A stretch of DNA of 19,933 bases from a virus (IMGVR_UViG_651324002_000003:1-19933); one strand, 5' to 3'. Numbered from the stretch's first letter, positions 3,828 to 18,592 are shown. Translations and numbers: made by a program. Notes: a model not told the origin generated them from the sequence alone.

Positions 3828-4022
3828 TTACAAAAGGCCTGCAACCTTCGCCAGGCCGATCAGTGCCAGGCCCAAGATAGCCAGGCCCACCCAAACCTGA
3901 AAGTTCGTGAACTTATGTTTTTCAGCCTTCCCTCTTACCCATCCGTCCAGTTCATGTCCGGATTCATCGAGTTTTTTACCTACCTCTTTTGCCTTTTCTT
4001 TGATTTCTTCCTTATTAGCCAT
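3828..4022 (-). CDS. 64-aa protein with a charged N-terminus and a C-terminal TM helix
   Basis: SD GGAGG lies upstream; the ATG is 2 nt after the amidase stop. The sequence is MANKEEIKEKAKEVGKK... then FQVWVGLAILGLALIGLAKVAGLL. Confidence 0.8.
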   Translation of the reverse strand: MANKEEIKEKAKEVGKKLDESGHELDGWVRGKAEKHKFTNFQVWVGLAILGLALIGLAKVAGLL

Positions 4023-4024
4023 TT

Positions 4025-4567
4025 TTACATTCCTCCATTTAATAAATATTTTTCTATACCAGACGCAATTGCTCTCGCAGCCGCGTCTTGATATGCCTCA
4101 GTGCCCAGCAACGCTTCCTCGGCTGAATGGGTAATAAACGCCAATTCAACCAGTGCCGCCGGCATATTGGTATATTTCAGGACGTATAACCCAACAGAAA
4201 GCTTAACGCCACGGTTAATAAGCCCCGTGGCGTTTACCAGTTCAATCTGAATGGACTGAGCCAGGTCATATCCCCTTTGACTGTCCAAGTGACACCATGT
4301 TTCAGTTCCATGTGCTGCTGGATCGTCATGCCCGTTGCAATGGATACTAATAAATAGGTCAGCACCCCAGGAATTTGCCTGGCCGCAAATATCCTGCAAA
4401 CTATCTGACTGATAGCAGAACGTGTCATAGCCGGCACCATCCAGAATATTCGCGACCATCCGGCCTACCGCAGCTGCCACGTCAGATTCCTGGAGACCCG
4501 ACGGACCGACGGCACCGGGGTCTGGATTGCCGTCTGGAGCGTGGCCGGGGTTGATGAATACTTTCAT
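4025..4567 (-). CDS. N-acetylmuramoyl-L-alanine amidase (Amidase_3), phage endolysin, catalytic domain only
   Basis: KVFINPGH (Zn His), DPGAVG..G..E (Zn Glu), ADLFISIHCNG (Zn His), HGTETW, LYVLK.TNMPAALVELAF (catalytic Glu). It lies directly after the holin. Confidence 0.95.
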   Translation of the reverse strand: MKVFINPGHAPDGNPDPGAVGPSGLQESDVAAAVGRMVANILDGAGYDTFCYQSDSLQDICGQANSWGADLFISIHCNGHDDPAAHGTETWCHLDSQRGYDLAQSIQIELVNATGLINRGVKLSVGLYVLKYTNMPAALVELAFITHSAEEALLGTEAYQDAAARAIASGIEKYLLNGGM

Positions 4568-4570
4568 ATT

Positions 4571-5170
4571 CTACTTCTCCTTCTTATCGCTGCCAGGCAC
4601 TGGCAGATTAAAATTACCGCCGGTGACCCGGTTTGCCAATGTGGCAAAAATCTGTTTCAGCTGCGCCAGACGTGTATTCCCCATTTGCTCCAGGTTCTCA
4701 GTGATCGATATCAATTCCGTGAGCGCGATAACCGTATAAATTCCTCCGGAAATAGACCGGTTCACCGGTGTTCCAAACAATATAATTTCCGGTAGTTTCG
4801 TGACTAAGCCGGCGCAGACGACCAGCACCACATAGGTAAATATCTTCTCACTCCATCGCTGTCGCAGTTCAGTGCTGGTCAGAAACCCCGGCCGCCAGGC
4901 ACTCCAAAAGCCCCAAAATATCGTCCATGCGTTAATAGATTCAGCCGATACACCGATACTGAGTAAATATTTTTTTGTGATCGCCGCCCATTTCGTCAGC
5001 GTATCCAGCAGCACGAACACAACAACGACAGCGAATATAACCTCGCTGCCTCCGAAAAGAAACACAAATGCAGATGATAGTGCTGACGCCAATACCTTTA
5101 CTGGCCAAAAGTCCATAATGTTTTCAAGACCATTTTTGAGCATCCGAATAAGTTTTTGTACACAATCCAA
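4571..5170 (-). CDS. Phage holin (Phage_holin_4_1 / TcdE-like)
   Basis: Several TM segments, with the family motifs LLDTLT, S..LR....EKIFTY and ELISITENLEQMG. TTG at 5170 lies 8 nt after GGAGG; the ORF-track start at 5185 contains that SD. Confidence 0.85.
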   Translation of the reverse strand: MDCVQKLIRMLKNGLENIMDFWPVKVLASALSSAFVFLFGGSEVIFAVVVVFVLLDTLTKWAAITKKYLLSIGVSAESINAWTIFWGFWSAWRPGFLTSTELRQRWSEKIFTYVVLVVCAGLVTKLPEIILFGTPVNRSISGGIYTVIALTELISITENLEQMGNTRLAQLKQIFATLANRVTGGNFNLPVPGSDKKEK

Positions 5171-5241
5171 ACACATCGCCTCCAAATAAAAATAGCGCCA
5201 ATGCGCAGTACCTCATACCACCCCCTTTCACTAGAAAGGAA

Positions 5242-5267
5242 ATAGGAGAGGTTTAAACCTCTCCTAT
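5242..5267 (-). terminator. Perfect 26-bp palindrome overlapping the giant gene stop codon
   Basis: ATAGGAGAGGTTTAAACCTCTCCTAT, followed on the - strand by TTCCTTTC. The TAG stop (5264-5266) lies in the first arm. Confidence 0.6.
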
Positions 5268-8200
5268 CGTTTTTTATTAGGAAGATCGACATTCCAAGGG
5301 ATTGTCACCTTTTCAGTTCCGGAACTTGTTTTACGTGACCTAAACCCGCCCAGCAATACCGTCTTGTAATACCGCTCTGCCTTTAATAATTCGGCTTTAT
5401 CCTCACCAGACAACCCCTGTAAGAACTTCTTTCTCTGATCCCTTGTGAGTCCGGCCAATGGGGACATATTAGCCAGGGCAGTAGCAAGGCTCTGTTTCGT
5501 GCCTCCCAGTGCCTTATACTCCATCAGGTACTTTGCGGCTATCTTCTTATCACCATATCGCAGAGCCATCTTGTAGTTTCGGATTGCTTCTGACTGGTCA
5601 GACATATAGTCTCCATCGCCGCCCTTGCCAATGCTCTTTAAAAAACGATTCTTTTCCTCCATGATGTTGTAATAGGCCGTCTTATCAGGCTCAGTTTTAT
5701 AGAGTAGAAACTTCATTACGTCATATCGAGGATGCGGCTTATCGGCGGCCAAACGATATTCGTCTCCCAGCCCAAAGCTATCAAAAATGTACTCTGGATA
5801 ATCGCGAATCCGCCGGGGCTTAAAGACATCTGGGAACAGCCGGCGCCCGATCAACAATTCGCCCGTGGTTTTAATGGTTGGCGTAATGCCCTGGACGAAC
5901 TTATTGACCGGATTCTTAACCATGTCACCGGCAATCTCCGCAATTGTCTTTTTGCCATTCAGATAGTCTGTAACGGTCTTAACCGGTGTGTCCAGTCCAA
6001 ACCATTCAAGGAAATCAGCGAATGCCCCGAGGCGATTGAAGTACATTACCTTGCCATCAGCATCGCGGCCGAGAATGATATGCGGCTGCCCAGCTATATT
6101 TGGAGGAAGTTCTTTTTCCTCATCCGGCCAGAGCGCGAAATTATACATCTGCAGAAGAATCCACATCCCAGTAGCCTTTACTGCAAACTCCCCGACCTGA
6201 ACCGCCAGGTACGGAGAGTAAACAGCCGCTTTCGTCAAGAGCCTCTTGCCGACTGTTTTCGCGATACCTTCATTGGACGCGCAGTTCCGGAACAGGTTAA
6301 TATAGCGTTTTGCGTTGACCTCTGTCCAAGACCAGAAAGGAATGAGATGTTTTCGCAGTTCCTTGCCGGCAACGGAAACAGCATTGTAATCTCCAAGGAG
6401 TTCGTTGGCCAACTTGAAAGCCTTGTCCCGATTGTCCGATAGAGCCATAACCTCTTCTGACATGCTTGCCCCGAAGTTTTTCGGCCTGCCTTTATTGCTC
6501 TCTATTTGCTCAAGATATTCAAGATAATTCGCGTATCTGAGCAGTGCCTCCCGCAAATCCGTAACCTTCCGGGCACGGCCCCAGTATCCATCCCATACCT
6601 TCGCCGCACCGGTTTTTAATGCGTTTTCCAGACCATCCTTTTGCTCACTGAACCGGATAAACAACTTCAACTTATTGATATCGCCAATTTCCTGCACTTG
6701 CAGAAGGGTCTGCATTCCGCCACGTTCGAACCACTCCCGCAGTTCGTTCGTCATTTCGCCGTCTCCATAGAAGTACCGATTCAGGTCCTTCATAGATTGG
6801 CTTACCTTTCGCAAGGAAGATGGATTCCCGGCTAATACCGCGTCTAAGTCGCTCGTCATATTTCTCAAATTATACTTAATGATCCGGGACGGACTGGTTA
6901 ACTGCCATATTTTCCATGGAGTAATCACATATTGGGACCATTTGGTTCCCGTGTCATTCACGAAATCAGGCGTCATTTTCTCCAATGTAGCCGCAATTTC
7001 TTCTTTGACAATATACCCTTCACGCCGGCCGCCTATAATCAGAGCGGTTTTCAATTGTTCGGGAGATACGCCCAGGGAATTGAGCGATTCACTCATCAGT
7101 TTTTCAACCATCTGTTCTGGGACGGTACGGGCCCGGAAGAATACATTTCCCTCTCTCGGCCGCCATTCAGAATATCCTTCGGGGATCAAATCGCGCCAGG
7201 TAACATACCGCTCGCCAAGAGCACCCCGGACGAACTGTTTCTTGTCCTGTATCCCCCGGAACAGCATTGCGGCGGCTCCACTGCCAGGCTTTCCGCCCTG
7301 CTCTTTCAGCAAGTAGGCGGCATATTCCATGAGCTTGGCGTGATTTTGCTCCTGATCCTGGAGTTTGTCTGCAACGGCATCCTCCATCCCCTGTGCATCC
7401 GATGATTCCTTACGGGCAAAGTATTCCTGCGCCAGATTTTCAACAACGTCCTGATACTTATTATTCGGCCCATATGGCAATTCATCTTTTGCCGCCAGTT
7501 CGCTCAATTTCGCGAAAGCCATAGCCTGCTTGCGGTTCAACGTTTGCTTATACATTTTCCGCGCCATGGATTCGACGGTCATATCATCGCTCACAATGCC
7601 AAACTCTTCAACCATATCACGGAATACCTGCATGACATTCTGGTCATTCATCGTGAGTGCTTCGGCCTTCAGCCGGTCGATGATGTTGTATTGATCATCC
7701 ACCAACTTGATCGTCTTGGCTACCTCCATGTCATACAGCATGTCACGCATGACTTCGAATTCGGCTTCCATATAATTTAGGTTGATATCCTTTTCGCTGC
7801 CTTCACGGCGTCTGAGCCATCCCCTATTCGTCGGCGCCTTCAGCTTTTGGCCAATACCGGCTATTCTCTTCTGATCCATGTACGCCAACACCTGGTGTCG
7901 GTAGTAATCTTCCCGGGCGAATTTGTTCTCCACATTGAAGCCGATTTTTTTCATGACGGCAATGTACCTGTCCTTAATGTCAGACCAAACTTCTTTCCGT
8001 TGTTCTACTGCCTTTGTGACATTGGGATAGTTGGCGGCAATATGCTCATCAAGCCGTTCCTGTTCAACCGGTAACGTTTCCTTGGTCAGTCCAAACGGTA
8101 GCGATCCTTCTTCATGTTGCAGATCATCCAATAGGACTTTCAGCGAAAAGTGGTAGTATTCGTCCTTGGACAGATTCTTCGTGATATCGTCGAGTATCCT

Positions 8201-11200
8201 GATGACTTTGTCGTTGGCTACCCCTTTTTGCTGCTGTAGCTTCTGCAGAGCAAAGCGAATTTCGGAGAACTCAGCGGTATGCGGCATATGCTCATACTCC
8301 CGGCCAAATTTGCGTTTTAACAAGTCCCACGCGCTCTTTAGGCTATCTTTAATACTGGTGGACTCTTTGGCACCAATAACGCCCTGCATGGCCTTTTCCG
8401 CCCGTCTTTGTGTCTCCTCGTTTTGGAATGTGAACCTATCACCGGCGACCGGCTTTTTCTGGATCGGTTCCTTTTGTGGAGTCGGCTTAGTGTAAATGAT
8501 TGTCCCGTCCGGCTTTTCTTCGCGGGTCCAGTTGCGCTCATTCAGCGCCTGGATAAGCTTTTTATAGTTATCGCCTTTCTGGGTGACTTTGGAGAAGGTC
8601 AGTTTGTCCGGAAGTTGCGCGTCTTTTGAGAAGCGAACCTTATCAGCATCTATCAATAATTTATATCCACGTTTTCTGACCTGCTGCTCCAGCATATTCA
8701 TATCATCGAACTTTTGACGAACATAGTCTCTGCTTTCGCGGAGGGTGATCGGGTCATATCCTTCGGCAGCGTTATCCGCGTCCGACCATACACCATTCGG
8801 GTCAATTTGTTCTAACAGATCAATAAGGGTTTCTCTCGAAAAGGTATTGATATTGTCCATAATTTCTTTGGGTGTATAGCTCTGTTTTGAGCGTTGAGGC
8901 TGACCGCCGCCGGAGTAACGAATGTCTGGATTGCTGCTATCAAATGTACCGATGTTATCAGTGGCAGACTTAATTTGATTGGAATAAAAAGCAATATATG
9001 TGTCCCCGCCGTCTTGCCCTTTTATAATAGCTCCATCAAACCCGGCCTCTTTAGCTTGTTTTAAATCAAATCCTTCGCCATTTTGCCATTGCTTATTGGT
9101 ATAGCGGTATGGATTTTTAATGTTCAAATACGCAGGAATGATGTTGCCATATTCTTTGGCAGTATCCCTGTTAGTAGTGAAGAAGAATCCGTCCTCACTT
9201 TCTATCTTTTGTGGATCGAAAGTAGAGAATGATTGTTTTGTACCGTGGTAGACAATGAGCGGCATACCCTGTTTGTCAACAACGGCCGAACTCTTCCCAT
9301 AATTTGTGCCAGTAGGCGGCTTGACGAGATTCAACAAATCTGCTACTGTATTAGCAGAAACACCGTTGGTTTTCTCACTTAATCCTGGGGCAGATTTATT
9401 CCGGCCCAGGACATGAGAATCCAGCGGTGTAATTTTTATGGCATTCAGATGATAAGCCTGTTTTCCTTTTAATGTTTCTTTCACTGTTAGCTCAGTTAAA
9501 TAATCATTGTTGCCAATTGAAAGCGGAGCGACAAAGGTGTGTACAAATGGAACTTCTGGCACATCATGCCTATTGGTTTCAGTAGAAACTAATATGGCAT
9601 TTTCAACAATATCAGGAATGGAAGCAATGGCCTTGACGGAATCGATTTTCCCGTTTGTGATGGCATAATAAGACGTTTCATTCAGCACTGCTTTTGAAAT
9701 ATTAATATCCCATCCAGTATCTTTATTTTTTCGTTCTCCACGAAATTCAGGCTGTTTCTTGGCCCATGCCGTCGCTTCTTTAGCAGCAGCTTTTACATTT
9801 TTAGACTGGGTTGCCTCTGTTCCCGTGATAGTGGTAATGGGAACATGGGTCTGATCGTTAACGCGCCAATCACCAAACCAACTGCGGAAGAACGGCGACT
9901 TAACTCCGACAGTATCCCAGAAGTGCTCGGCCCACGACCGTACCCAGGACTCTTTAAGCATCTCGGCAGGAATCCCCGCAATATTGACATGCTTTACACC
10001 CTTCGGCGCCGGTGCAAACTTTTTATCTTGTGAAGCAGCAGTTTTACCTGCCGTGCCAACCTCATAGCCACTGTCCTTTAGCGACCTAATAACAATATCC
10101 GGCAGCACTGCCTCAATTTCCGAAATTTGCTCCCGAGTTAAGCCGCTATTTCTGTATGAACGTTTCCCGGTCAGAAACTGCAACCATTCTTGCACCGATT
10201 GAACAATACGCTTAAACAGCGCCGGCGACTTCTTCTGTATTTTTTCCCACAGTGATTCACTGCCGAAGCCGTTACCAACTTCATCGCCTATCATTTCCTC
10301 AATGACAGCTTCCCGGTCCATCGCTTTACCGCGCTCTCCCAGACGCCGGCGGTATGCATCAACTTGCGCGTCCGTAACCTTGCTGACCGCTGACCGCATC
10401 GCCTTATACACACCGGGGCGATTTTCGGCTAACCAGTGAGTAAATTCATGGCCCAGCGTCCATTCCAGCGACAGATTGCCGTTACGGTTTAAATACAGTG
10501 TGCCATCCATGTAAAAACCACGCAGGGAAGTATCTGCGTGGTCTATTATTTCGGCCTTGGCGCCTAAATTATTAGCAAGGTCTATGATCCGCTGTTCGTT
10601 CGTGGTTGGGTCAACACTTTCTGCATTGTCGATGATCCCGGCGTCGCTGGAGAACTTAGCTTCGCGTAAGGCGCTGCTGGATTCTTCGATAAATGCCTTC
10701 CGGTCTGCATCCGTGTTAAAGGCGAACCCCTTGACGGCATCCCCTTTTTCCCAGCTATTCCACCATCCATCATGTCTTTTTGCAATATTCATGTGCTGAT
10801 CAAAGTTGTCTCGCAGATACTTCTTCGCTTTGGCGATATAGATCAGATTTTTATTTTTCGTATGGCGGAATTCATGTTTTGAATAATTATCTTCCTGCGT
10901 TGCTTCTTCCGTTGCGCTTTCGGTTTCACGGGATTGGCTGGAGATTGGCGAGGTTGCAGACCGCGCCGATTGAACCTGAAGCCTGTCGGGGAGAGAAATG
11001 GTTTCGATCCGGTCAAATAATTCTCCGATTGTTTCGGCATCGGACAAATCAATATGACGATTGTCTATCTCTTCCGTGCCGGCAGCATCTATATGTTTTT
11101 CAATGACAACAATCTTGGTTCGCACTCCTGTGCCGGCTCTTTCAAACGTAACGGACGGTAATTTGATTTCAGCAACCGGATAGGCGCCGGTTGCCTCTTC

Positions 11201-14200
11201 GGAGTCATACCATGCATTCAGCCGTTTATCTGCCAGGCCGCCATCAGGAAGAAGCGCAACGATCCTGCCGCCGTCGTAAAGATGTTTATACGCCTTCCCT
11301 AAATGCTCTATAGCGGTTTTCCCGCCATGGCCATAGGGAGGGTTCATAACCACTGCATTAAATTTATTGATAATATGATAGTCTTCAAACCGGTTGGATA
11401 CCAGTTTTGCCGGGCTGACCATCACTGCACGGGGCCCCAATTGCAGGCTCGGTTCAATCATCACGTGATCTGCATGGCCTGGGAAGAACCTGGCAATAGC
11501 TCCATGTCCCGCAGAAGGTTCCATGGCCCGTTCCCCGGGCTTCATGTTCGCCCATTCCACCATTTTATATCCAATAGGTTCCGGCGTCGCATAGTAATCA
11601 TTGCCTTCTGCCGACTTGTTTTGACTGGTCTTCTTCTGCTGAGAGAAATAATAGGATTTTGCCCGTTGGAATTCCGTCATCTCCCGCCGATTTGCCCGGT
11701 CTTTTGCTTTTCCGCCCGTTCCTTCGGCGTCCATCCCAGCCGGAAATTCCCCGCTCATTTCGTAGGCTTCAATGAACGAATCCTTTAGCCTCCGCGCCTC
11801 ACCGCCAAGCGCCAGGTTCTCTGCCGTAGACGCACGTTCTGCAATTTTAGTGGCAAAGGCAAGGCGTTCAAAGGTGGTTCCAGTATTCAGATAGCGGAAT
11901 ATGGCATCCGACATCTGACCCGTTCGATAGATACGGCCCTCAATTTGAATAGCCGCCGTAGGACGGACCGGCATGCCCAGGTTGATCAAGACCCGTTGGT
12001 GTTTGCCTGTCCGGTCATGCAGGCTGATCCCTTCCCGGCCGGCATCAGATTGCACTACGATAAGGTCCTTACCACTGTCATCATCATTGAATAAATCGAC
12101 GTTCTTGCCGCGCACCTTCTTGGGAATTGTGCCATTAAAGAACATAGCATCTTCGCCGAATGACTGTTTCACCTGTTCTATCGGCGACAGCAATTCAGAA
12201 AGGTCCAATTTGAGCAAATCCGGGCGCTTGGCAGTAAATTCATGATACAAACTCCGAAGGTCTTCGGGGATGAATTCCGGCCTGAACGGATGGAATCCAC
12301 CGCCCTTGTTGAAGTCATGAAACAACACTACCTTTTTACCCTGTTTCAGGTAATCCTTGACCAATCCTACCGCATGTTTGGCCTTAATGGACTCCAGAAG
12401 ATACATCTTTTGATGATAAGCAAACTGGTCGTCGATGAAATCATACAGAGGGCTATACTTTCTGTCTTCTGCCTCCCACAGCCAATTCAATCCTTCATCG
12501 ATCTTGCCGCCTATGGCATCATTGACCAGTACAAAGTTACGGTCATAGTCTTTATCCACCGTCAGCATCCGGCCGGACAATACGCCCTGGCCTCTCAGCC
12601 ACTCGTGGAATTGCTGTTCCATAATCTCATTATCCACATTGGCATCCGGAGATGTTAACCTGTTATAGCGCATCCGATAGCCGAAGTGGGTAATGAAGAA
12701 ATTCTCCCGGGAGTCCGGTTGATTATACCCGCGGTATTCGTCCGTATCCTGACCATAACCAAACAGGTATCCCTCGGCATATTCGACGTTTTTTACATAG
12801 GCGAAAGGAGTCGCCGACAGGAAAACCACTCTGCTTCGTTTCTCTGGAGGAACAGCGTCCCACTCTTCATACCGTTCTTTGCGCAGATTCTCAATACCAG
12901 TGGATAAGTCCCTGGATTTTTTCTCCAGAGCATCATACTGTTCCCGTTCCTCTTTCGTTCCGGGCTTAAAGTTTCTAAGTTCTTCATAGGCGCTGCGTTC
13001 TTTTTCAACCAAATCCCGTTCAAGGTCATCAAATCGCTGACGATACCCATTGCGATGAAGGGTAATAGCTCGGAGCGCAGACGCTGCACCGGTGATATCC
13101 CCTTGTTCGCTACTGGACAGGTAATGGGACTCATCGGGAACAACTAGGTCCCAATGCCGTTTCGCCAATTCTTGGTTTTGCCCCAGGTTAGCATAAGTGG
13201 TTATGACAATACCCTTGCCGGCGCTCTTGGTATCCTCAAGTTTTGTGATATCCAATCCCATGTTCTTCCCGGCATCAATCCACCCAGCAATGATTTTATC
13301 GTTAGGGGCAACAATGAGAATATTGTTTTTTCCCTGTCTGGCAAAGCGCTTCACAATGCCAATTCCGGTAAAGGTTTTCCCCGTACCAGTCCCGTTGGTA
13401 AACAATACGCCATAGCCGTCGGGCTTCGAAAACCTTTCTTCCGCAAACAGGACATCGTTCTGTTGTTCAGGCATTAAAAAAGGCAGCGTTTTCCGGATGT
13501 TCTCCAGGTTCGCCACCTTTACTGGTATGGATTCAGCTTTTTTCTGTGCCTCTAGTTTGGAAGCTAAGGATGTTCCGCCGGTTTCAGTTTCGGTTCGGTC
13601 TGCAGCAATTGCAGCAAGTCCTTTTGTTGCTGACGGGTCAGATTGTACTCCTTCGTCGCTAAATAGGCTGCTTCCTCCAGGGAGTTCACTTCCGGCAGCA
13701 CGTTCCTGATCCACGGCCGTTCCGCCGCGTACTCCCTGATTCCTTTCGCTTCCGCCACGAGCGGCGCCACCAGAAGGAACCCGTCTATTACCCGGCTGTC
13801 GATCCCCTGTTTCTCCAGTCTCTTCGCTTCCTTGTCCATCGCCTCGGCGATTTCCTGCTGATTCATTGCGAAGTACTTCTGGCCCCACCCCGTCTCGATT
13901 GGGCACAGTTGCGTTATCTCGTTCCAGATTCTCGCGGCCACGTTCACCATACTGACTCCCTCCCTCGAATCCCGGCCATTCAGAAACGCCGGAAAATGCT
14001 GCTTTTACCATGGGGACAAAATCTGCCCCCAGATCCTCTTGTATCCGCTGCTCCATCCCAGTCTGATTCGTAACCCCGTCCTGATAGAGGATTCCCGCAT
14101 ATTCAAACAAAGAGTTGGCTACCCGATCATTATATTTGACATCTTCCGGCCACGCCGTGATGGAATTCCAAACGCTTTTCAGATAAGGCCGGATTCTTTC

Positions 14201-17200
14201 TCCCACCGTATCTACCATTGTAGCGGACCAATCAGAGAAGTTATTGATACCCCGCTGCATGTGAATGGCACCGACCTTAAACGCCGCTCCCATTAACGTG
14301 GGGTTAAATACGGGATTGGAACTAATCTTGCTGAGTTCGGATTGAAGCTCTTTCATGGCCTGCGCTAAAGCCGCATCGCTGTCATCCACGATATTCAGCT
14401 TCTTTTGCTTCGGTTTCTTGCCGGTTAACTCCAGGAGTTGATTGCGAAGCCTATCCCGATTTGCCTGGCTCCCATCGAATCCGGTGATATTATTGCCGGA
14501 TTCGGGAAGTTGCTCAGTCTGTTGTACAGACTGTTGTTCGCTTTGTTGTACGGTCTGTTGTGCGCCTTGTTGTTTTATTGACGGTTCCGCTTCATTTACT
14601 GGGCGCGATCCACTTTTGGATTCTGATATGTTGTTTTCCTTTTGGCGATTTCCGCTCTCCGTCTCTTGATTTCCTTGTCCAGTTCTTCCGGATTGTTCGC
14701 CAGATGCTCCAGACCCAACGCTTTCAGTTTCGACTCGAATGACATTAGAATTTCCCCCTTGTTCTTTCAGTTGTTTCTCCAGTTCAGCAAACAACTGATT
14801 CTTTTTGTTTAAAACAGCGAGTTCCGAGTCGGATATCATGTTTTGGTATGACGGATATCCATTAAACTCATCTGCCGCATAGTGGATACCAATACCCGTT
14901 TGCAGGTGAGTCTTTTTACCGTGCATCAGTTTATCCAAGCCATTCGACTTAGCATAGTCCGCAATTTGGGCTTGAGCACGCTGTAACGCAGTATCCAACG
15001 TTTCTTTTGATATATCCGGGGTCAATATGCGCCACTCGTCGCCACCCCATCTGAAATATTGTGCATGGTCAGCAACGGCGCCCACTTCATCGGAAACGAT
15101 CTTGGTGATCACTCGTAAGTGTTTATCAGCCGCTTCGTTTCCAGCAACGCCATTCAACCCGCCCAGATTGAGGAAGTCCACGTTAGCAAAGGCAAACTGC
15201 CGGCCGTTCGCTTTAAACTCATCCCACGCCCGTTCTACTGTGGGCGTGAATTGCCCCTTGACTTGATACCCAATGGTTTCATCAACAACGCGCGGGGCTT
15301 TCCTGCGCTCAATGAAGCTGTTTGCAGTCTGCTGCGCATGGTCTTCGCTCATTCCCTGAGAAACCAGTTCCGCAGCAAGTTCCTGTCTTTCCTGTTGTCG
15401 GTCCACTTCCGTTTGCGCTAAAAAGGGTTTTGCCTTTTGTACCTGGCTTTCACCCTGCTCCTGCTGTTGCCGTTCTTTCAGCGCCGTCCGGATGTGATCC
15501 GGGAGTTTTTCAACCTGAGCACGGCCTTCCGGAGTGTCCATCTTCTTCCGTAGGGCTTCGCTGCGCAGTGCTTCTTCTACTTGTTTTTGTTTTCGGGACT
15601 GTGCGGCGCGGGATTCCTCTGACTCGATACTGGATCGGCCGAAGGACTGGAATTGTTCCGCTGCCCCCCGAAGATCCCGATTGCCGCCTGTGCCGCCGGC
15701 GACAGATGGTTGAACCCACTCGGGGACTTGCTGGTTGATGTTTTCCCGGGTTGTTTCGATTGCATTTACAGTCGCCTCCAGTGCGCTAAACTCATCGCTG
15801 ATAGTTTCATCTACAGACCAATGGCGCCGGCTGCCGCGCAGGATACTGACAGCCAAATCGTGATACTTCTGATTGTTCATCGGATACAATTGGCGATACC
15901 AATCAGGATTAGTACTTGCGCGGACTTTCCCCTCACCATCTTGTTTAGATATTAATTCTACGCCGCCTTCTGCCGCTTCCTGCTTCAACAAACGAACTTC
16001 TTGCTGTATCCGGGAGTTTATTTCTCCTGTAATTTCATCCCTGACCGCATCTAAGCTTACATTATAGGACCGAAGGATATCCAGGAAGTACTGTTCGTCA
16101 CCCGAAAGGTTTTGGTAGGCCTGTGCCATGCGCCGCTGTTCCCGGAATAAGGCCGCATTGGTATTCGCTTCACCCGGCTGACCTTGTTTGGCAAAAGTCT
16201 GTTGCTGCGGCGTATTGGCTATGAGTTCTCCCAAGGATATAAATCTCTGAGCCCTTGCGGCATCTCCTTTAGCCTGCGCCAGTCTGGCTGCCTCCTGGTA
16301 ATTCCGACTGTTCAATGCCCGTGTAATTTGTTCCTCGGAGTCAGCCTCTTCGTATTTACGCGCCAATTGTTCACTGCCAAGCTGCCGGGCCATACCGGCG
16401 GCCGCCCGGTAGTCTCCCGCCCGAGCCGCATTATCCATTGATTTTTCAACGGCGAATCTCTGTGCGTTGGTCATTCCATCAACGGATTGAGGAATCTGTT
16501 CCCTTGCCTGTGTCAGCGTTATGCCACTGCCGGAAGGGATTTCAATGGATGTACCCGGATCGCCGCCCGGTATGGACGGAGTTACGCCAGGCGACGGAGC
16601 CTGAAAGTATTGTACGCCCCCCACATTATACCGGCGCCATGCGGGATTAGCCTGACCAAATTGTTCGGCCTGCCGGGCATCGGAAAACTCGACTACTTGC
16701 GGTTGCGGTATCGACACCGGAGCAGGAGTTTGGTCCTCGGTTGCCTGACTGGCTTGATTGGCATTAAATTCCGTTGCCAGTCTGAAAAAATCCTCATCAT
16801 TCAAGGATGGACCCTGCTGTTGTTCGTCCTGTACTTGCTCTTGTTGCTGTTCCTGCGGGGTAATTTTGAAAACACCGTAATCTACCCCTGCCTTCGCAAT
16901 AGTGGAGTTGGTTATATTGATTTTACCTGCTTCGTTGAATATCCCATATTGGGCATCCATTTGCGACAGATTTTTGGTGGCGAGATCGATCATGAATTGA
17001 CCCTTTTGTGTTTCTTGCTCCGTCTTCCCCTGCTTGATTGCCTTTTCTCCCTGACGGGCTAAGTCAAAATTCGCTGTTATCTGGTTTTGCAGTTCTCTTT
17101 CCGCATTTTCGACCTGTTTCTGAGTAACGGGATCGACCGCCCCACCGGAAAGAGTTTGCAATTCTTTGGTGACTCCGCTGCGGCGCCGGGAGTCCATCAC

Positions 17201-18592
17201 CCCACGTCCGGCTGCGCCGACACCAGCGGATACCGCCCCGATTGCAAAAGCTGAACGCATTTCTCGGAAGTTCTCATCAGAGAACGGGTTCCAGTCCATT
17301 CCTTCCCCCGTGACATAGCGTTGGATATTGCTCTGCGGTAGTTCTTCCATAACGGATTCACTCAGGCCATTAGCTATCAATGTGGCGGCTACCTTAGCCC
17401 CCGGGCTCAGTTTGTCCCATTGTTTTGCAAGCCTTCCGCCAAACCGTTTTGCTATCGGTCCGGCACCACGGGTAAACAGTCCCCATTCCAGCTTATTCGT
17501 TACAGCCAGCAGAGCGGTGTTCCCGACCATGACCTTATCAGCACGGTTCACTGCCTGTCCCCGGGCGTATTCATCCGCATCTTTTAAGGACATTCCCTGC
17601 CGCATGCCTTCATCATAATACAGTTTATAATCCTCATCGTATCGGTTGCCTGCTTCTACCGATGCTTCAGCCATGGCGGCCAGGGGAGTACCAACAACCG
17701 GAATAGCATTTAACGGCAGGTTGGTAATAGTGAATGGGATATTTCGCTGGACATCCGTCCAGGTTTCGACCAGCGCTGACTGGATAGGGCCAAGACGCTC
17801 CCGGTCTTCTTCCGTAAGATCATCGCTTTTATATTTCTCATAAGTTTCTCTGCCGCTTTGTTCCCACTCCTGTCCTTTATTCTCCAGCCAGTGAGTGAAT
17901 GACCCTGGCTGCGGGGCCGGGATGGGTTTAACCTGCTTTTCTTTTTCAGTCAGAGCCGCAATCCCGGCAATCACTGGACTAGCCGTGGTTTTTACAATAT
18001 CACTTACTAAGTCAGGAGCATTAAGAGCATTGGACATATATCGCATACCAGTGCCATAGCCAGATTGTGCCTGACCAAATCCGGCGATGAAGTCATTGGT
18101 CGCTCTTTTGGGAGGAACCGGGGTGGATTGAAAGTCAAAATCATCTAAGCTCGCTGGTCTCTGGGAATACATTTCGTCCTGCTGATCATGTAACTTCTTC
18201 GCATAGTCCGTCGCCGCTTCCGGCGTGTCGAACTTGCCAAGATGCTGGCCGGTTTTAATGTACTGATCTACGGCCTCGTTCTCGGTTAATATCCTGCCAT
18301 CGTCGCTAACAGTGGGAATCAGCACTTCTCTTCCGTCCATATTAATGCTCATAGACCGAACCGTGCTGATCGATCCGTCTGCATTGCGCACAACGGGGCG
18401 ATTGGAAAGATCAATATTACCTTGTTCGGCCGGCCCGGAAGACGCCGGCAAATTAATAAGCGGCTTGCTCTGTTGAGCAGCCGCTCCATTGTAGTTGTTG
18501 ATAACCGAATCAATATCCGATGGTTGAGTTTGATAATCCGCTTGCATAGCAGGAGGCTGAGGTGCATTCGCTGCACCATTATCACCGAACAA
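5264..18592 (-). CDS. Giant polyvalent protein, probable phage internal virion/ejection protein (>=4442 aa; ~4490 aa if joined to the ATG at 18735)
   Basis: Single 13.3-kb ORF with recognisable motifs: RWGGDEW, GTGTGKT/DESH/SAT/QIEGRIYRTGQ, EPSAGHG/NPPY, HEFTH and VYHGT. It has G/A-rich hydrophobic segments near the N-terminus and lies between an ejection-like gene and the lysis cassette. The TTG at 18592 has no SD. Confidence 0.9.
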   Translation of the reverse strand: MFGDNGAANAPQPPAMQADYQTQPSDIDSVINNYNGAAAQQSKPLINLPASSGPAEQGNIDLSNRPVVRNADGSISTVRSMSINMDGREVLIPTVSDDGRILTENEAVDQYIKTGQHLGKFDTPEAATDYAKKLHDQQDEMYSQRPASLDDFDFQSTPVPPKRATNDFIAGFGQAQSGYGTGMRYMSNALNAPDLVSDIVKTTASPVIAGIAALTEKEKQVKPIPAPQPGSFTHWLENKGQEWEQSGRETYEKYKSDDLTEEDRERLGPIQSALVETWTDVQRNIPFTITNLPLNAIPVVGTPLAAMAEASVEAGNRYDEDYKLYYDEGMRQGMSLKDADEYARGQAVNRADKVMVGNTALLAVTNKLEWGLFTRGAGPIAKRFGGRLAKQWDKLSPGAKVAATLIANGLSESVMEELPQSNIQRYVTGEGMDWNPFSDENFREMRSAFAIGAVSAGVGAAGRGVMDSRRRSGVTKELQTLSGGAVDPVTQKQVENAERELQNQITANFDLARQGEKAIKQGKTEQETQKGQFMIDLATKNLSQMDAQYGIFNEAGKINITNSTIAKAGVDYGVFKITPQEQQQEQVQDEQQQGPSLNDEDFFRLATEFNANQASQATEDQTPAPVSIPQPQVVEFSDARQAEQFGQANPAWRRYNVGGVQYFQAPSPGVTPSIPGGDPGTSIEIPSGSGITLTQAREQIPQSVDGMTNAQRFAVEKSMDNAARAGDYRAAAGMARQLGSEQLARKYEEADSEEQITRALNSRNYQEAARLAQAKGDAARAQRFISLGELIANTPQQQTFAKQGQPGEANTNAALFREQRRMAQAYQNLSGDEQYFLDILRSYNVSLDAVRDEITGEINSRIQQEVRLLKQEAAEGGVELISKQDGEGKVRASTNPDWYRQLYPMNNQKYHDLAVSILRGSRRHWSVDETISDEFSALEATVNAIETTRENINQQVPEWVQPSVAGGTGGNRDLRGAAEQFQSFGRSSIESEESRAAQSRKQKQVEEALRSEALRKKMDTPEGRAQVEKLPDHIRTALKERQQQEQGESQVQKAKPFLAQTEVDRQQERQELAAELVSQGMSEDHAQQTANSFIERRKAPRVVDETIGYQVKGQFTPTVERAWDEFKANGRQFAFANVDFLNLGGLNGVAGNEAADKHLRVITKIVSDEVGAVADHAQYFRWGGDEWRILTPDISKETLDTALQRAQAQIADYAKSNGLDKLMHGKKTHLQTGIGIHYAADEFNGYPSYQNMISDSELAVLNKKNQLFAELEKQLKEQGGNSNVIRVETESVGSGASGEQSGRTGQGNQETESGNRQKENNISESKSGSRPVNEAEPSIKQQGAQQTVQQSEQQSVQQTEQLPESGNNITGFDGSQANRDRLRNQLLELTGKKPKQKKLNIVDDSDAALAQAMKELQSELSKISSNPVFNPTLMGAAFKVGAIHMQRGINNFSDWSATMVDTVGERIRPYLKSVWNSITAWPEDVKYNDRVANSLFEYAGILYQDGVTNQTGMEQRIQEDLGADFVPMVKAAFSGVSEWPGFEGGSQYGERGRENLERDNATVPNRDGVGPEVLRNESAGNRRGDGQGSEETGETGDRQPGNRRVPSGGAARGGSERNQGVRGGTAVDQERAAGSELPGGSSLFSDEGVQSDPSATKGLAAIAADRTETETGGTSLASKLEAQKKAESIPVKVANLENIRKTLPFLMPEQQNDVLFAEERFSKPDGYGVLFTNGTGTGKTFTGIGIVKRFARQGKNNILIVAPNDKIIAGWIDAGKNMGLDITKLEDTKSAGKGIVITTYANLGQNQELAKRHWDLVVPDESHYLSSSEQGDITGAASALRAITLHRNGYRQRFDDLERDLVEKERSAYEELRNFKPGTKEEREQYDALEKKSRDLSTGIENLRKERYEEWDAVPPEKRSRVVFLSATPFAYVKNVEYAEGYLFGYGQDTDEYRGYNQPDSRENFFITHFGYRMRYNRLTSPDANVDNEIMEQQFHEWLRGQGVLSGRMLTVDKDYDRNFVLVNDAIGGKIDEGLNWLWEAEDRKYSPLYDFIDDQFAYHQKMYLLESIKAKHAVGLVKDYLKQGKKVVLFHDFNKGGGFHPFRPEFIPEDLRSLYHEFTAKRPDLLKLDLSELLSPIEQVKQSFGEDAMFFNGTIPKKVRGKNVDLFNDDDSGKDLIVVQSDAGREGISLHDRTGKHQRVLINLGMPVRPTAAIQIEGRIYRTGQMSDAIFRYLNTGTTFERLAFATKIAERASTAENLALGGEARRLKDSFIEAYEMSGEFPAGMDAEGTGGKAKDRANRREMTEFQRAKSYYFSQQKKTSQNKSAEGNDYYATPEPIGYKMVEWANMKPGERAMEPSAGHGAIARFFPGHADHVMIEPSLQLGPRAVMVSPAKLVSNRFEDYHIINKFNAVVMNPPYGHGGKTAIEHLGKAYKHLYDGGRIVALLPDGGLADKRLNAWYDSEEATGAYPVAEIKLPSVTFERAGTGVRTKIVVIEKHIDAAGTEEIDNRHIDLSDAETIGELFDRIETISLPDRLQVQSARSATSPISSQSRETESATEEATQEDNYSKHEFRHTKNKNLIYIAKAKKYLRDNFDQHMNIAKRHDGWWNSWEKGDAVKGFAFNTDADRKAFIEESSSALREAKFSSDAGIIDNAESVDPTTNEQRIIDLANNLGAKAEIIDHADTSLRGFYMDGTLYLNRNGNLSLEWTLGHEFTHWLAENRPGVYKAMRSAVSKVTDAQVDAYRRRLGERGKAMDREAVIEEMIGDEVGNGFGSESLWEKIQKKSPALFKRIVQSVQEWLQFLTGKRSYRNSGLTREQISEIEAVLPDIVIRSLKDSGYEVGTAGKTAASQDKKFAPAPKGVKHVNIAGIPAEMLKESWVRSWAEHFWDTVGVKSPFFRSWFGDWRVNDQTHVPITTITGTEATQSKNVKAAAKEATAWAKKQPEFRGERKNKDTGWDINISKAVLNETSYYAITNGKIDSVKAIASIPDIVENAILVSTETNRHDVPEVPFVHTFVAPLSIGNNDYLTELTVKETLKGKQAYHLNAIKITPLDSHVLGRNKSAPGLSEKTNGVSANTVADLLNLVKPPTGTNYGKSSAVVDKQGMPLIVYHGTKQSFSTFDPQKIESEDGFFFTTNRDTAKEYGNIIPAYLNIKNPYRYTNKQWQNGEGFDLKQAKEAGFDGAIIKGQDGGDTYIAFYSNQIKSATDNIGTFDSSNPDIRYSGGGQPQRSKQSYTPKEIMDNINTFSRETLIDLLEQIDPNGVWSDADNAAEGYDPITLRESRDYVRQKFDDMNMLEQQVRKRGYKLLIDADKVRFSKDAQLPDKLTFSKVTQKGDNYKKLIQALNERNWTREEKPDGTIIYTKPTPQKEPIQKKPVAGDRFTFQNEETQRRAEKAMQGVIGAKESTSIKDSLKSAWDLLKRKFGREYEHMPHTAEFSEIRFALQKLQQQKGVANDKVIRILDDITKNLSKDEYYHFSLKVLLDDLQHEEGSLPFGLTKETLPVEQERLDEHIAANYPNVTKAVEQRKEVWSDIKDRYIAVMKKIGFNVENKFAREDYYRHQVLAYMDQKRIAGIGQKLKAPTNRGWLRRREGSEKDINLNYMEAEFEVMRDMLYDMEVAKTIKLVDDQYNIIDRLKAEALTMNDQNVMQVFRDMVEEFGIVSDDMTVESMARKMYKQTLNRKQAMAFAKLSELAAKDELPYGPNNKYQDVVENLAQEYFARKESSDAQGMEDAVADKLQDQEQNHAKLMEYAAYLLKEQGGKPGSGAAAMLFRGIQDKKQFVRGALGERYVTWRDLIPEGYSEWRPREGNVFFRARTVPEQMVEKLMSESLNSLGVSPEQLKTALIIGGRREGYIVKEEIAATLEKMTPDFVNDTGTKWSQYVITPWKIWQLTSPSRIIKYNLRNMTSDLDAVLAGNPSSLRKVSQSMKDLNRYFYGDGEMTNELREWFERGGMQTLLQVQEIGDINKLKLFIRFSEQKDGLENALKTGAAKVWDGYWGRARKVTDLREALLRYANYLEYLEQIESNKGRPKNFGASMSEEVMALSDNRDKAFKLANELLGDYNAVSVAGKELRKHLIPFWSWTEVNAKRYINLFRNCASNEGIAKTVGKRLLTKAAVYSPYLAVQVGEFAVKATGMWILLQMYNFALWPDEEKELPPNIAGQPHIILGRDADGKVMYFNRLGAFADFLEWFGLDTPVKTVTDYLNGKKTIAEIAGDMVKNPVNKFVQGITPTIKTTGELLIGRRLFPDVFKPRRIRDYPEYIFDSFGLGDEYRLAADKPHPRYDVMKFLLYKTEPDKTAYYNIMEEKNRFLKSIGKGGDGDYMSDQSEAIRNYKMALRYGDKKIAAKYLMEYKALGGTKQSLATALANMSPLAGLTRDQRKKFLQGLSGEDKAELLKAERYYKTVLLGGFRSRKTSSGTEKVTIPWNVDLPNKKR
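5780..6370 (-). other. LPD38-like C-terminal region of the giant protein (approximate bounds)
   Basis: LIPFWSW...ELPP....PHIILG...YF.RLGAF...ITPTIK...ELLIG..LF resembles the C-terminal regions of phage polyvalent/ejection proteins. Recognised from memory and needs an HMM check. Confidence 0.45.
8912..9290 (-). other. ADP-ribosyltransferase-like domain (ART-PolyVal type)
   Basis: VVDKQGMPLIVYHGT (YHGT at 9239-9250), GFFFT, AKEY, AYLNIKNP, GFDGAII, YIAFYSNQIKSATDN.GTFD..NPDIRYS. Confidence 0.8.
9430..9760 (-). other. LPD3-like (BECR-fold-like) domain (approximate bounds)
   Basis: KNKDTGWDINIS...AIASIPDIVENAILV......HTFVAPLSIGNNDYLTELTVKE....AYHL, the characteristic pattern of LPD3-type polyvalent domains. 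Confidence 0.6.
10150..10590 (-). other. Zincin-like metallopeptidase domain (MPTase-PolyVal type)
   Basis: LRGFYMDGTLYLN...TLGHEFTHWL (HExxH at 10436-10450) followed by EEMIGD (candidate third ligand). Confidence 0.8.
11090..11610 (-). other. N6-adenine DNA methyltransferase domain
   Basis: DYYATP, SAM-binding motif I EPSAGHG (~11501-11521), catalytic motif IV NPPY (11333-11344), and GGRIVALLP. Confidence 0.9.
11790..13490 (-). other. SF2 helicase/ATPase, Strawberry-notch-like
   Basis: Walker A GTGTGKT (13373-13393), DESH (13124-13135), SAT (12809-12817), SDAGREGISLH and QIEGRIYRTGQ. The GxSLH...QxxGRxxRxGQ pattern is typical of SBNO-type C-terminal helicase domains. Confidence 0.88.
13564..13950 (-). 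CDS. Nested 128-aa gene in the +1 frame of the giant gene
   Basis: GGAGG (13963-13959) lies 8 nt before ATG 13950. The product has a helical, globular-looking composition, while the giant frame over exactly this interval is G/R/E/S low-complexity. Confidence 0.75.
   Translation of the reverse strand: MVNVAARIWNEITQLCPIETGWGQKYFAMNQQEIAEAMDKEAKRLEKQGIDSRVIDGFLLVAPLVAEAKGIREYAAERPWIRNVLPEVNSLEEAAYLATKEYNLTRQQQKDLLQLLQTEPKLKPAEHP
14513..14572 (-). repeat. Degenerate 12-bp tandem repeat (5 units) encoding QQxx linker
   Basis: (C/T)TGTTG recurs at 14519, 14531, 14543, 14555 and 14567, encoding QQGA-QQTV-QQSE-QQSV-QQTE. Confidence 0.85.
14596..14745 (-). CDS. Nested 49-aa gene in the +1 frame of the giant gene (not in the ORF track)
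   Basis: AAGGGGG lies 8 nt before ATG 14745. The translation is MSFESKLKALGLEHLANNPEELDKEIKRRRAEIAKRKTTYQNPKVDRAQ, TAA at 14596-14598. The giant frame here is S/G/E/N low-complexity. Confidence 0.65.
   Translation of the reverse strand: MSFESKLKALGLEHLANNPEELDKEIKRRRAEIAKRKTTYQNPKVDRAQ
14795..15200 (-). other. GGDEF-like nucleotide cyclase domain (GGDEW variant)
   Basis: VDFLNLGGLN..AGNEAADKHL...FRWGGDEWRIL (GGDEW at 15032-15046) aligns by eye with D.D.FK..ND..GH..GD..L...RYGGDEF. Confidence 0.75.
15016..15038 (+). repeat. 23-bp exact direct repeat, copy 2 (copy 1 at 3408-3430)
   Basis: CCGGGGTCAATATGCGCCACTCG, here encoding EWRILTP of the GGDEW motif. Confidence 0.95.
15577..15765 (-). 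CDS. Possible nested 62-aa gene in the +1 frame of the giant gene
   Basis: GGAGG lies 9 nt before ATG 15765. The product is S/P-rich with one hydrophobic patch (LSPAAQAAIGIFGG). The SD could arise by chance from Leu-Glu-Ala codons. Confidence 0.35.
   Translation of the reverse strand: MQSKQPGKTSTSKSPSGFNHLSPAAQAAIGIFGGQRNNSSPSADPVSSQRNPAPHSPENKNK

Follow-up and report, generated by a model that had tools for sequence, protein, structure and literature searches.

Phages have embedded out-of-frame genes, such as Rz1 of lambda, which lies within Rz in the +1 frame, and the overprinted genes of phiX174. Embedded phage genes are covered by a survey of spanins (PMC6139136) and a review of viral overprinting (PMC8227390). 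Polyvalent proteins of phages and conjugative elements, giant polypeptides that each unite several effector or LPD domains, have also been surveyed (Iyer et al. 2017, PMC5512222); overlaps, frameshifted genes, and nested genes within polyvalent genes do not come up in the text of that survey. DarB of phage P1 is a large protein combining an SF2 helicase and an N6-methylase, and needs small accessory proteins: Ulx, Hdf, DarA, and DdrA/B (PMC5512222; PMC9144972). In the Lessieviruses (Bcep22-like), giant DarB-like proteins have been detected in virions by mass spectrometry, and homologues of the P1 accessories were not found (PMC9144972). We found no literature report of a nested out-of-frame gene inside a polyvalent or DarB-like gene. 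Here we describe a stretch of viral DNA of 19,933 nucleotides (nt) (IMGVR_UViG_651324002_000003:1-19933; “the window”), on a contig of a 4.3-Mb bacterial assembly, in which a 4,442-codon polyvalent, DarB-like gene contains an open reading frame (ORF), ORF1, in the +1 frame. By comparison with related loci, ORF1 is probably a real gene, some 125 codons long and contained in the giant gene of a phage of the Bcep22/Parlo type; we put the probability of this at roughly 0.85.

A preliminary description, made from the window sequence, had proposed that three small genes are overprinted on the giant gene, one per linker, and act on the neighboring effector domains. All three ORFs are present, on the same strand as the giant gene and all in the +1 frame (Table 1), and they are placed as described: ORF3 before a GGDEF-like domain, ORF2 after it, and ORF1 stopping three codons short of the match to the helicase. 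There is strong support for ORF1 as a selected and independently started gene; this support does not extend to ORF2 and ORF3.

Conservation of ORF1 and selection in two frames

ORF1 occupies the stretch tethering a conserved helical domain (domain X) to a DarB-like module of SNF2-like helicase and N6-methylase. Relatives were chosen by helicase alignment only, so the nested ORF did not bias their selection: a search of IMG/VR returned 346, of which the best 80 were kept, with helicase identities of 46–68%. With a small hidden Markov model (HMM) built on the nested protein, a homologue was detected in all 80 loci, always +1 relative to the helicase, with an ATG no more than 6 nt from the expected start and with the outer frame open well beyond that start. 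The homologues are 119–139 amino acids (aa) long, and most stop ~60 nt or less from the helicase match. Another 12 distinct loci, obtained in a second scan seeded with the helicase, gave the same picture (120–141 aa). An SD (Shine-Dalgarno) core lies 5–17 nt upstream of 57 of the 73 distinct ORF1 starts (78%), compared with 423 of 5261 other +1-frame ATGs in the same loci (8%). The expectation that homologous linkers would keep the +1 frame open behind an ATG was thus borne out at ORF1, over lineages ranging from <30% to 97% identity, and ORF1 appears to have its own translation start signals: an ATG in all loci, and an SD core in most.

The same-strand +1 geometry could also suit programmed +1 ribosomal frameshifting into the ORF1 frame, yielding a truncated N-terminal polyprotein that ends in a folded domain; the nested stop falls just before the helicase, so a shift would give a shorter isoform. 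This is very improbable. Homology starts at the conserved ATG, with its frequent SD core, and in many loci a +1-frame stop lies directly upstream of that ATG (TGA-ATG, TAA-ATG), so that the shift would have to fall within the domain that is conserved. A conserved slippery motif was not apparent at the junction, although no formal search for one was made.

ORF1 is also found in isolated phages. A tblastn search matched Klebsiella phage ZX1, two Vibrio phages, and one Ruegeria phage; in ZX1 and Vibrio phage 1.232.O, an ATG-started ORF of 129 or 131 codons is +1 to the annotated giant coding sequence (CDS), directly before the helicase, where the giant frame is of low complexity. Six isolated phages carry ORF1 (Parlo, Skulduggery, and ZX1 among them), and in all six the giant CDS is the sole annotation there, as had been anticipated for a nested gene that annotation would miss. 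A blastn search of the region against isolated phages gave no match, and nor did the ORF1 profile against 400 other genomes of the same phylum.

Substitutions in the overlap follow the nested frame. Column entropies at nested codon positions 1, 2, and 3 are 1.28, 1.11, and 1.45, which in these alignments is the classic coding pattern of the nested frame and the opposite of the outer-frame expectation. Pairwise identities average 35.5% for the nested frame and 27.7% for the outer one, with the nested value the higher in 90% of 2,556 pairs; between the window and its nearest relative (L013), the figures are 64 and 34%. Across 20 close pairs (80–99.5% nucleotide identity, 818 differences), nested position 3 takes 444 of the differences; 427 (52%) are synonymous in the nested frame, compared with 145 (18%) in the outer. 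The outer frame is open in all 74 distinct sequences, and a synonymous shuffle of the nested codons leaves it open with a median probability of 0.16. In the alignment of the relatives, the density of +1 stops is 0.000 over the ORF1 block and 0.02–0.05 per codon elsewhere: the stop-codon depletion suggested as a check is found at ORF1, and ORF1 is the sole +1 stop-depleted block in the giant gene, contrary to what the other proposed nested genes would lead one to expect. These comparisons indicate that the same DNA is read in two frames, both apparently under selection: the nested frame for its amino acid sequence, and the outer only to remain open, giving a fast-evolving linker that is predicted to be disordered. 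The marks of a nested gene pair (both frames open across the overlap, purifying selection on the nested protein, and start signals of its own) were each found by sequence comparison.

It could still be argued that the giant protein alone is made and that ORF1 is no longer a gene, being left over from a domain formerly in frame, or is simply what conserved DNA gives when read in another frame; the annotations of the six isolated phages show no gene there, and conserved helicase DNA, translated in alternative frames, likewise gives clusters of similar sequences. Those helicase pieces, however, are broken up by stops, while at ORF1 no distinct relative has lost the +1 frame, even in lineages <40% identical. 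Substitution patterns that track the nested frame rather than the outer one, and an outer-frame product that is disordered and diverges faster, make a relic or by-product scarcely credible.

Two other features of these loci may be mentioned here. In one subclade, a second +1-frame ORF of ~52 aa stops right at the ORF1 start (TGA-ATG or TAA-ATG; L020:2450-2614, L027:2444-2614, L029, L030, L091, L174:210-368), a layout that would permit translational coupling. With 191 nested-frame and 189 outer-frame synonymous substitutions, neither frame is clearly favored in it. In addition, a related element is found in a genome of a different family of the same order (L009/L010, G004:C1:146291-150340); at the DNA level it resembles the window (70%) mainly over ORF1 and the beginning of the helicase.

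ORF2, ORF3, and other +1-frame ORFs

ORFs of the lengths of ORF2 and ORF3 are expected by chance: codon shuffles of the giant gene contain on average 10.3 +1-frame ATG-started ORFs of at least 49 aa (11 are observed) and 5.7 of at least 62 aa (7 observed). An SD had been described before each of the three ORFs. This holds for ORF1, with GAGGGAGGGAG 5 nt before the ATG, and for ORF3, with GGAGG; ORF2 has GGGGGA only, a weak SD containing none of the cores GGAG, GAGG, or AGGA. Because SD cores precede 11 of the 176 +1-frame ATGs in the giant gene, a 62-aa ORF with an SD is unremarkable. A switch of the giant frame to low-complexity sequence over the nested ORFs, likewise part of the preliminary description, is seen at ORF1 (its predicted structure is given below) but is inexact at ORF2, where the run extends ~30 residues beyond the nested stop.

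In a codon-likelihood scan (45-codon sliding window, +1 minus outer frame; mean −0.52, standard deviation 0.22 over the giant gene), positive stretches are limited to ORF1 (maximum +0.28), ORF2 (maximum +0.19, the second strongest in the gene), and a marginal spot at giant aa 2521–2578. Since the second maximum coincides with ORF2, this ORF is retained as a doubtful candidate gene. ORF3 has an ordinary codon score and a low-complexity product; it is most likely a chance ORF, and very unlikely to be a gene. No homologue of either was found in an index of 5.8 billion proteins or in any fetched locus. Close relatives of the GGDEF segment were not found among IMG/VR viral contigs or GTDB genome contigs, and metagenomes gave one weak fragment. 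The nearest relatives of the window (L003, L004, and a related prophage) are without the GGDEF domain, and have +1 stops in the region aligned to the C-terminal half of ORF2.

The full system as first proposed would have all three +1 ORFs expressed, each product an inhibitor, chaperone, or adaptor of its adjoining effector domain (GGDEF-like for two, helicase for one). The evidence for ORF1, the codon-usage maximum at ORF2, and the GGAGG of ORF3 speak for it; the missing homologues of ORF2 and ORF3, the stops opposite ORF2, the ordinary codon score and low-complexity product of ORF3, the chance expectation for both lengths, and the confinement of +1 stop depletion to the ORF1 block make it distinctly unlikely. 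The idea of several overprinted genes, one to each linker, does not hold up, with ORF3 chance-like and ORF2 having a codon-usage signal from a single sequence.

Several apparent resemblances were also discarded. The likeness of ORF3 to a 49-aa +1 ORF in L003 and L004 is explained by outer-frame homology (scores of 82 for the outer frame and 62 for +1). The word LEHLA, common to ORF2 and the subclade-specific 52-aa ORF, is not significant, and an HMM of the latter misses ORF2. Other clusters of alternative-frame ORFs in the relatives are R/G/P-rich by-products of conserved outer-frame domains. Within the window, a 65-aa +1-frame ORF after the methylase (10843-11040, minus strand) has a codon-usage signal that is marginal (+0.016) and lacks an SD; its product is basic and of low complexity, and it overlaps a conserved outer-frame motif, so it is probably due to chance.

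Products, age, and possible role of ORF1

The ORF1 protein is predicted to be a compact all-alpha domain of eight helices [AlphaFold2 (AF2) model from a 72-sequence alignment; predicted local distance difference test (pLDDT) 86.9, predicted template modeling score (pTM) 0.82], and is mildly acidic (family median pI 5.1). The outer-frame reading of the same DNA is almost without Trp, Met, Tyr, and Phe; in a model of giant aa 1380–1759, residues 1545–1650 have pLDDT <50 and no secondary structure. No Pfam or PHROG family was found for the ORF1 product. Its predicted fold had no match in the PDB (best Foldseek E = 1.1, best VIA-align Z 4.4), and nothing was found in BFVD or the ESM Atlas; a search of AFDB returned only an uncharacterized member of the same family, and a language-model atlas nothing for either ORF1 or ORF2.

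Searched with the profile, a set of 1.84 billion representatives yielded 610 proteins at E ≤ 1e-3. Proteins of ~120 aa that looked free-standing (P0006, P0011, P0014, and P0100) proved to be nested copies called on short, cut contigs (4 of 4 sampled). Longer homologues, however, carry the ORF1 domain in the ordinary frame, in multidomain proteins of other mobile elements (Table 1): one is upstream of a type I hsdR-S-M operon; another sits next to Dcm, Vsr, SNF2, and MmeI-type genes in an integrative element; in a third, the domain is duplicated and joined to DUF6794; and the fourth is a separate gene after an LPD38 polyvalent gene, with a membrane-like tail. The ORF1 fold therefore exists independently of the overlap, and because such homologues occur in other mobile elements the small gene can be taken as the older reading. 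This independence, the junk-like outer reading, and the single +1 frame in all loci suggest that the giant gene was extended once across a pre-existing small gene. The direction of overprinting implied by the preliminary description is probably to be reversed: the small gene looks the older, and the giant frame reads through it.

On this reconstruction, the giant gene would have grown by reading across the older small gene in another frame, joining upstream domains to the helicase-methylase module with the small gene retained. ORF1 would be translated by independent internal initiation on the giant-gene mRNA, and its product would be free in the cytoplasm and mildly acidic. No promoter or terminator was detected within the region on the strand of the giant gene.

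Because ORF1 travels with the helicase-methylase (DarB-like) module, an accessory role is the best guess, and ORF1 is tentatively proposed as an assembly or packaging chaperone, or a regulator of activity, for the module in the producing cell. It is conceivable, but rather unlikely, that it is an independent counter-defense protein riding along. More speculative still is a general scheme in which polyvalent genes grow by alternate-frame read-through and ORF1 is the dedicated partner of its module in the producing cell, locked to it by the overlap, with ORF2 perhaps a second instance. If this is true, the partner would be a regulator, antidote, or packaging chaperone, and the pair would move as a unit in domain shuffling; ORF2 might then be a lineage-specific case beside the GGDEF-like domain.

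Comparison with other DarB-like giants shows that such genes differ in their modules. The Bcep22 protein gp75 (L171, NC_005262; gene at 3951-17759) has domain X at 27% identity to the window, but gave no tblastn match to the window helicase or methylase and no ORF1; in Parlo, the positive control, both helicase and nested gene are present. Homology of ORF1 to Ulx of P1 was considered and rejected (hhalign probability 0.2%, E = 0.28). A search of the P1 genome with the ORF1 profile gave no match, an empty answer that shows little by itself.

Several points weigh against the view of ORF1 as a real gene, older than the frame around it and allied to the module. The length of ORF1 in the window is not significant by itself, since the longest +1-frame ORF reaches 128 aa or more with a probability of 0.25 in codon shuffles; it is conservation among the aligned relatives, and not appearance in the window, that raises ORF1 above chance. 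The relatives are kin, so that pooled statistics overstate independence, and the gene call is drawn from sequence comparison and predicted structure. The polarity, with the small gene older, is argued from parsimony and not from a rooted tree. The proposal that the overlap locks the small gene to an effector module fits the co-occurrence of ORF1 and the helicase-methylase module in 92 of 92 loci, but this count holds by construction, the loci having been picked by helicase. Independently of that choice, the linkage is favored by the contrast between Bcep22, which lacks both, and Parlo, and by the correlation of nested-protein and helicase pairwise identities (r = 0.64). As to function, fold and family searches yield no lead, and the neighborhoods of the free-standing homologues are heterogeneous, with only 2 of ~7 sampled adjoining helicase/methylase systems. 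For a second instance of such overprinting, the sole positive at ORF2 is a codon statistic from a single sequence (z about 3.3).

If ORF1 is a gene, it is a conserved one, longer than many annotated phage genes, and unannotated in the largest gene of a podophage group that takes in phages serving as models or suggested for therapeutic use (Klebsiella ZX1, Serratia Parlo, Pseudomonas Skulduggery); it would also show that genes nested in long ORFs are systematically lost to gene callers. It would define a new, uncharacterized protein family with a confident predicted fold, and offers a clean natural case of two-frame coding, with a folded protein in one frame and a mere tether in the other, which bears on the origin of overlapping genes and on engineered overlap designs. 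Should the DarB-like helicase-methylase prove to be regulated or chaperoned by it, the antirestriction machinery would gain an accessory so far missing.

Layout of the giant gene and comparison with described systems

Pfam domains in the 4,442-aa product are GGDEF, ResIII, Helicase_C, LPD3, and ART-PolyVal: as in the polyvalent proteins of Iyer et al. (2017), several effector and LPD domains are present in one giant phage polypeptide. The gene is followed by a lysis cassette, in the same arrangement as in phage Parlo, and an acetyltransferase gene is close by; the layout is that of the Bcep22/Parlo-type podophages, in which the giant gene is annotated “DarB-like antirestriction.” Domain X is all-helical, with two similar helical units (AF2 model, pLDDT 86–97). 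It was matched by tblastn in 55 loci, some of them duplicates, and most relatives keep it upstream of ORF1; its only PHROG match, to “DarB-like antirestriction,” is weak, and no Pfam family was found for it. The helicase spans giant aa ~1726–2256, its C-terminal part being of the Strawberry-notch type. Within the DarB-like module the helicase is identified by Pfam and the methylase by motifs and annotation of homologues only, such as a homologous Vibrio phage gene annotated as N-6 adenine-specific DNA methylase; there is no Pfam methylase match to the giant protein at E < 0.01. A GGDEF-like domain in a polyvalent protein appears to be rare (no close relative in pattern-based scans of IMG/VR, metagenome contigs, and GTDB).

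Table 1. Features of the window and in-frame homologues of the ORF1 domain. Positions are those of the window unless a locus is named; giant aa, residues of the giant protein.
Feature	Position	Strand	Description
Lysis genes (holin-like, endolysin)	4025-5185		Directly downstream of the giant gene
Outer polyvalent gene	5264..18592	-	From ORF list and Pfam; holin-like and endolysin genes downstream
N6-adenine methyltransferase motifs EPSAGHG ... NPPYG	11330..11521	-	Read from the translation; downstream of the helicase
SF2/SNF2-like helicase module	11693..13555	-	Pfam ResIII, Helicase_C, Helicase_C_4; follows ORF1
ORF1	13564..13950	-	+1 frame, 128 aa; judged real
Outer-frame reading over ORF1	13565..13951	-	Giant aa 1548-1676; disordered G/S/D/R/A-rich tether from domain X to helicase
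Domain X	13952..14425	-	Giant aa ~1390-1547; conserved helical domain immediately upstream of ORF1
Shine-Dalgarno-like GAGGGAGGGAG	13956..13966	-	5 nt before ORF1 ATG; outer-frame Glu/Gly codons
ORF2	14596..14745	-	+1 frame, 49 aa; after the GGDEF-like domain
GGDEF-like domain, motif GGDEW	14795..15253	-	Giant aa 1114-1266; Pfam GGDEF E=7e-9; between ORF3 and ORF2
ORF3	15577..15765	-	+1 frame, 62 aa; before the GGDEF-like domain
In-frame ORF1-domain homologues	L097:6001-7674 (P0035); L094:6001-7242 (P0055); L100:3562-5262 (P0116); L105:7001-8209 (P0142)		

Among known overlaps, Rz1/Rz and the overprinted genes of phiX174 resemble ORF1 in being same-strand genes wholly inside another, with their own start signals and conservation among relatives. 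ORF1 differs in that the outer reading is a tether between domains, predicted to be disordered and under selection solely to remain open, that the inner gene appears to be older and folded, and that the host gene is a 13-kb polyvalent one. The synthetic “overlapping, alternate-frame insertion” (OAFI; bioRxiv 10.1101/2024.11.07.622342) is engineered, whereas ORF1 is natural and widely conserved, and here the outer gene was probably extended across a pre-existing inner gene.

As for the giant gene, it is a textbook member of the polyvalent class (Iyer et al. 2017, PMC5512222), with its LPD3, ART-PolyVal, helicase-methylase dyad, and GGDEF-like domains, and like other members it encodes one polypeptide in a late or virion gene context. 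With P1 DarB, it would share the joining of an SF2 helicase and a putative N6-methylase in a large protein; in DarB, the order of the two is reversed with respect to the helicase-then-methylase order of the window. ORF1 has no similarity to Ulx of P1, and no homologue of it was found in Bcep22.

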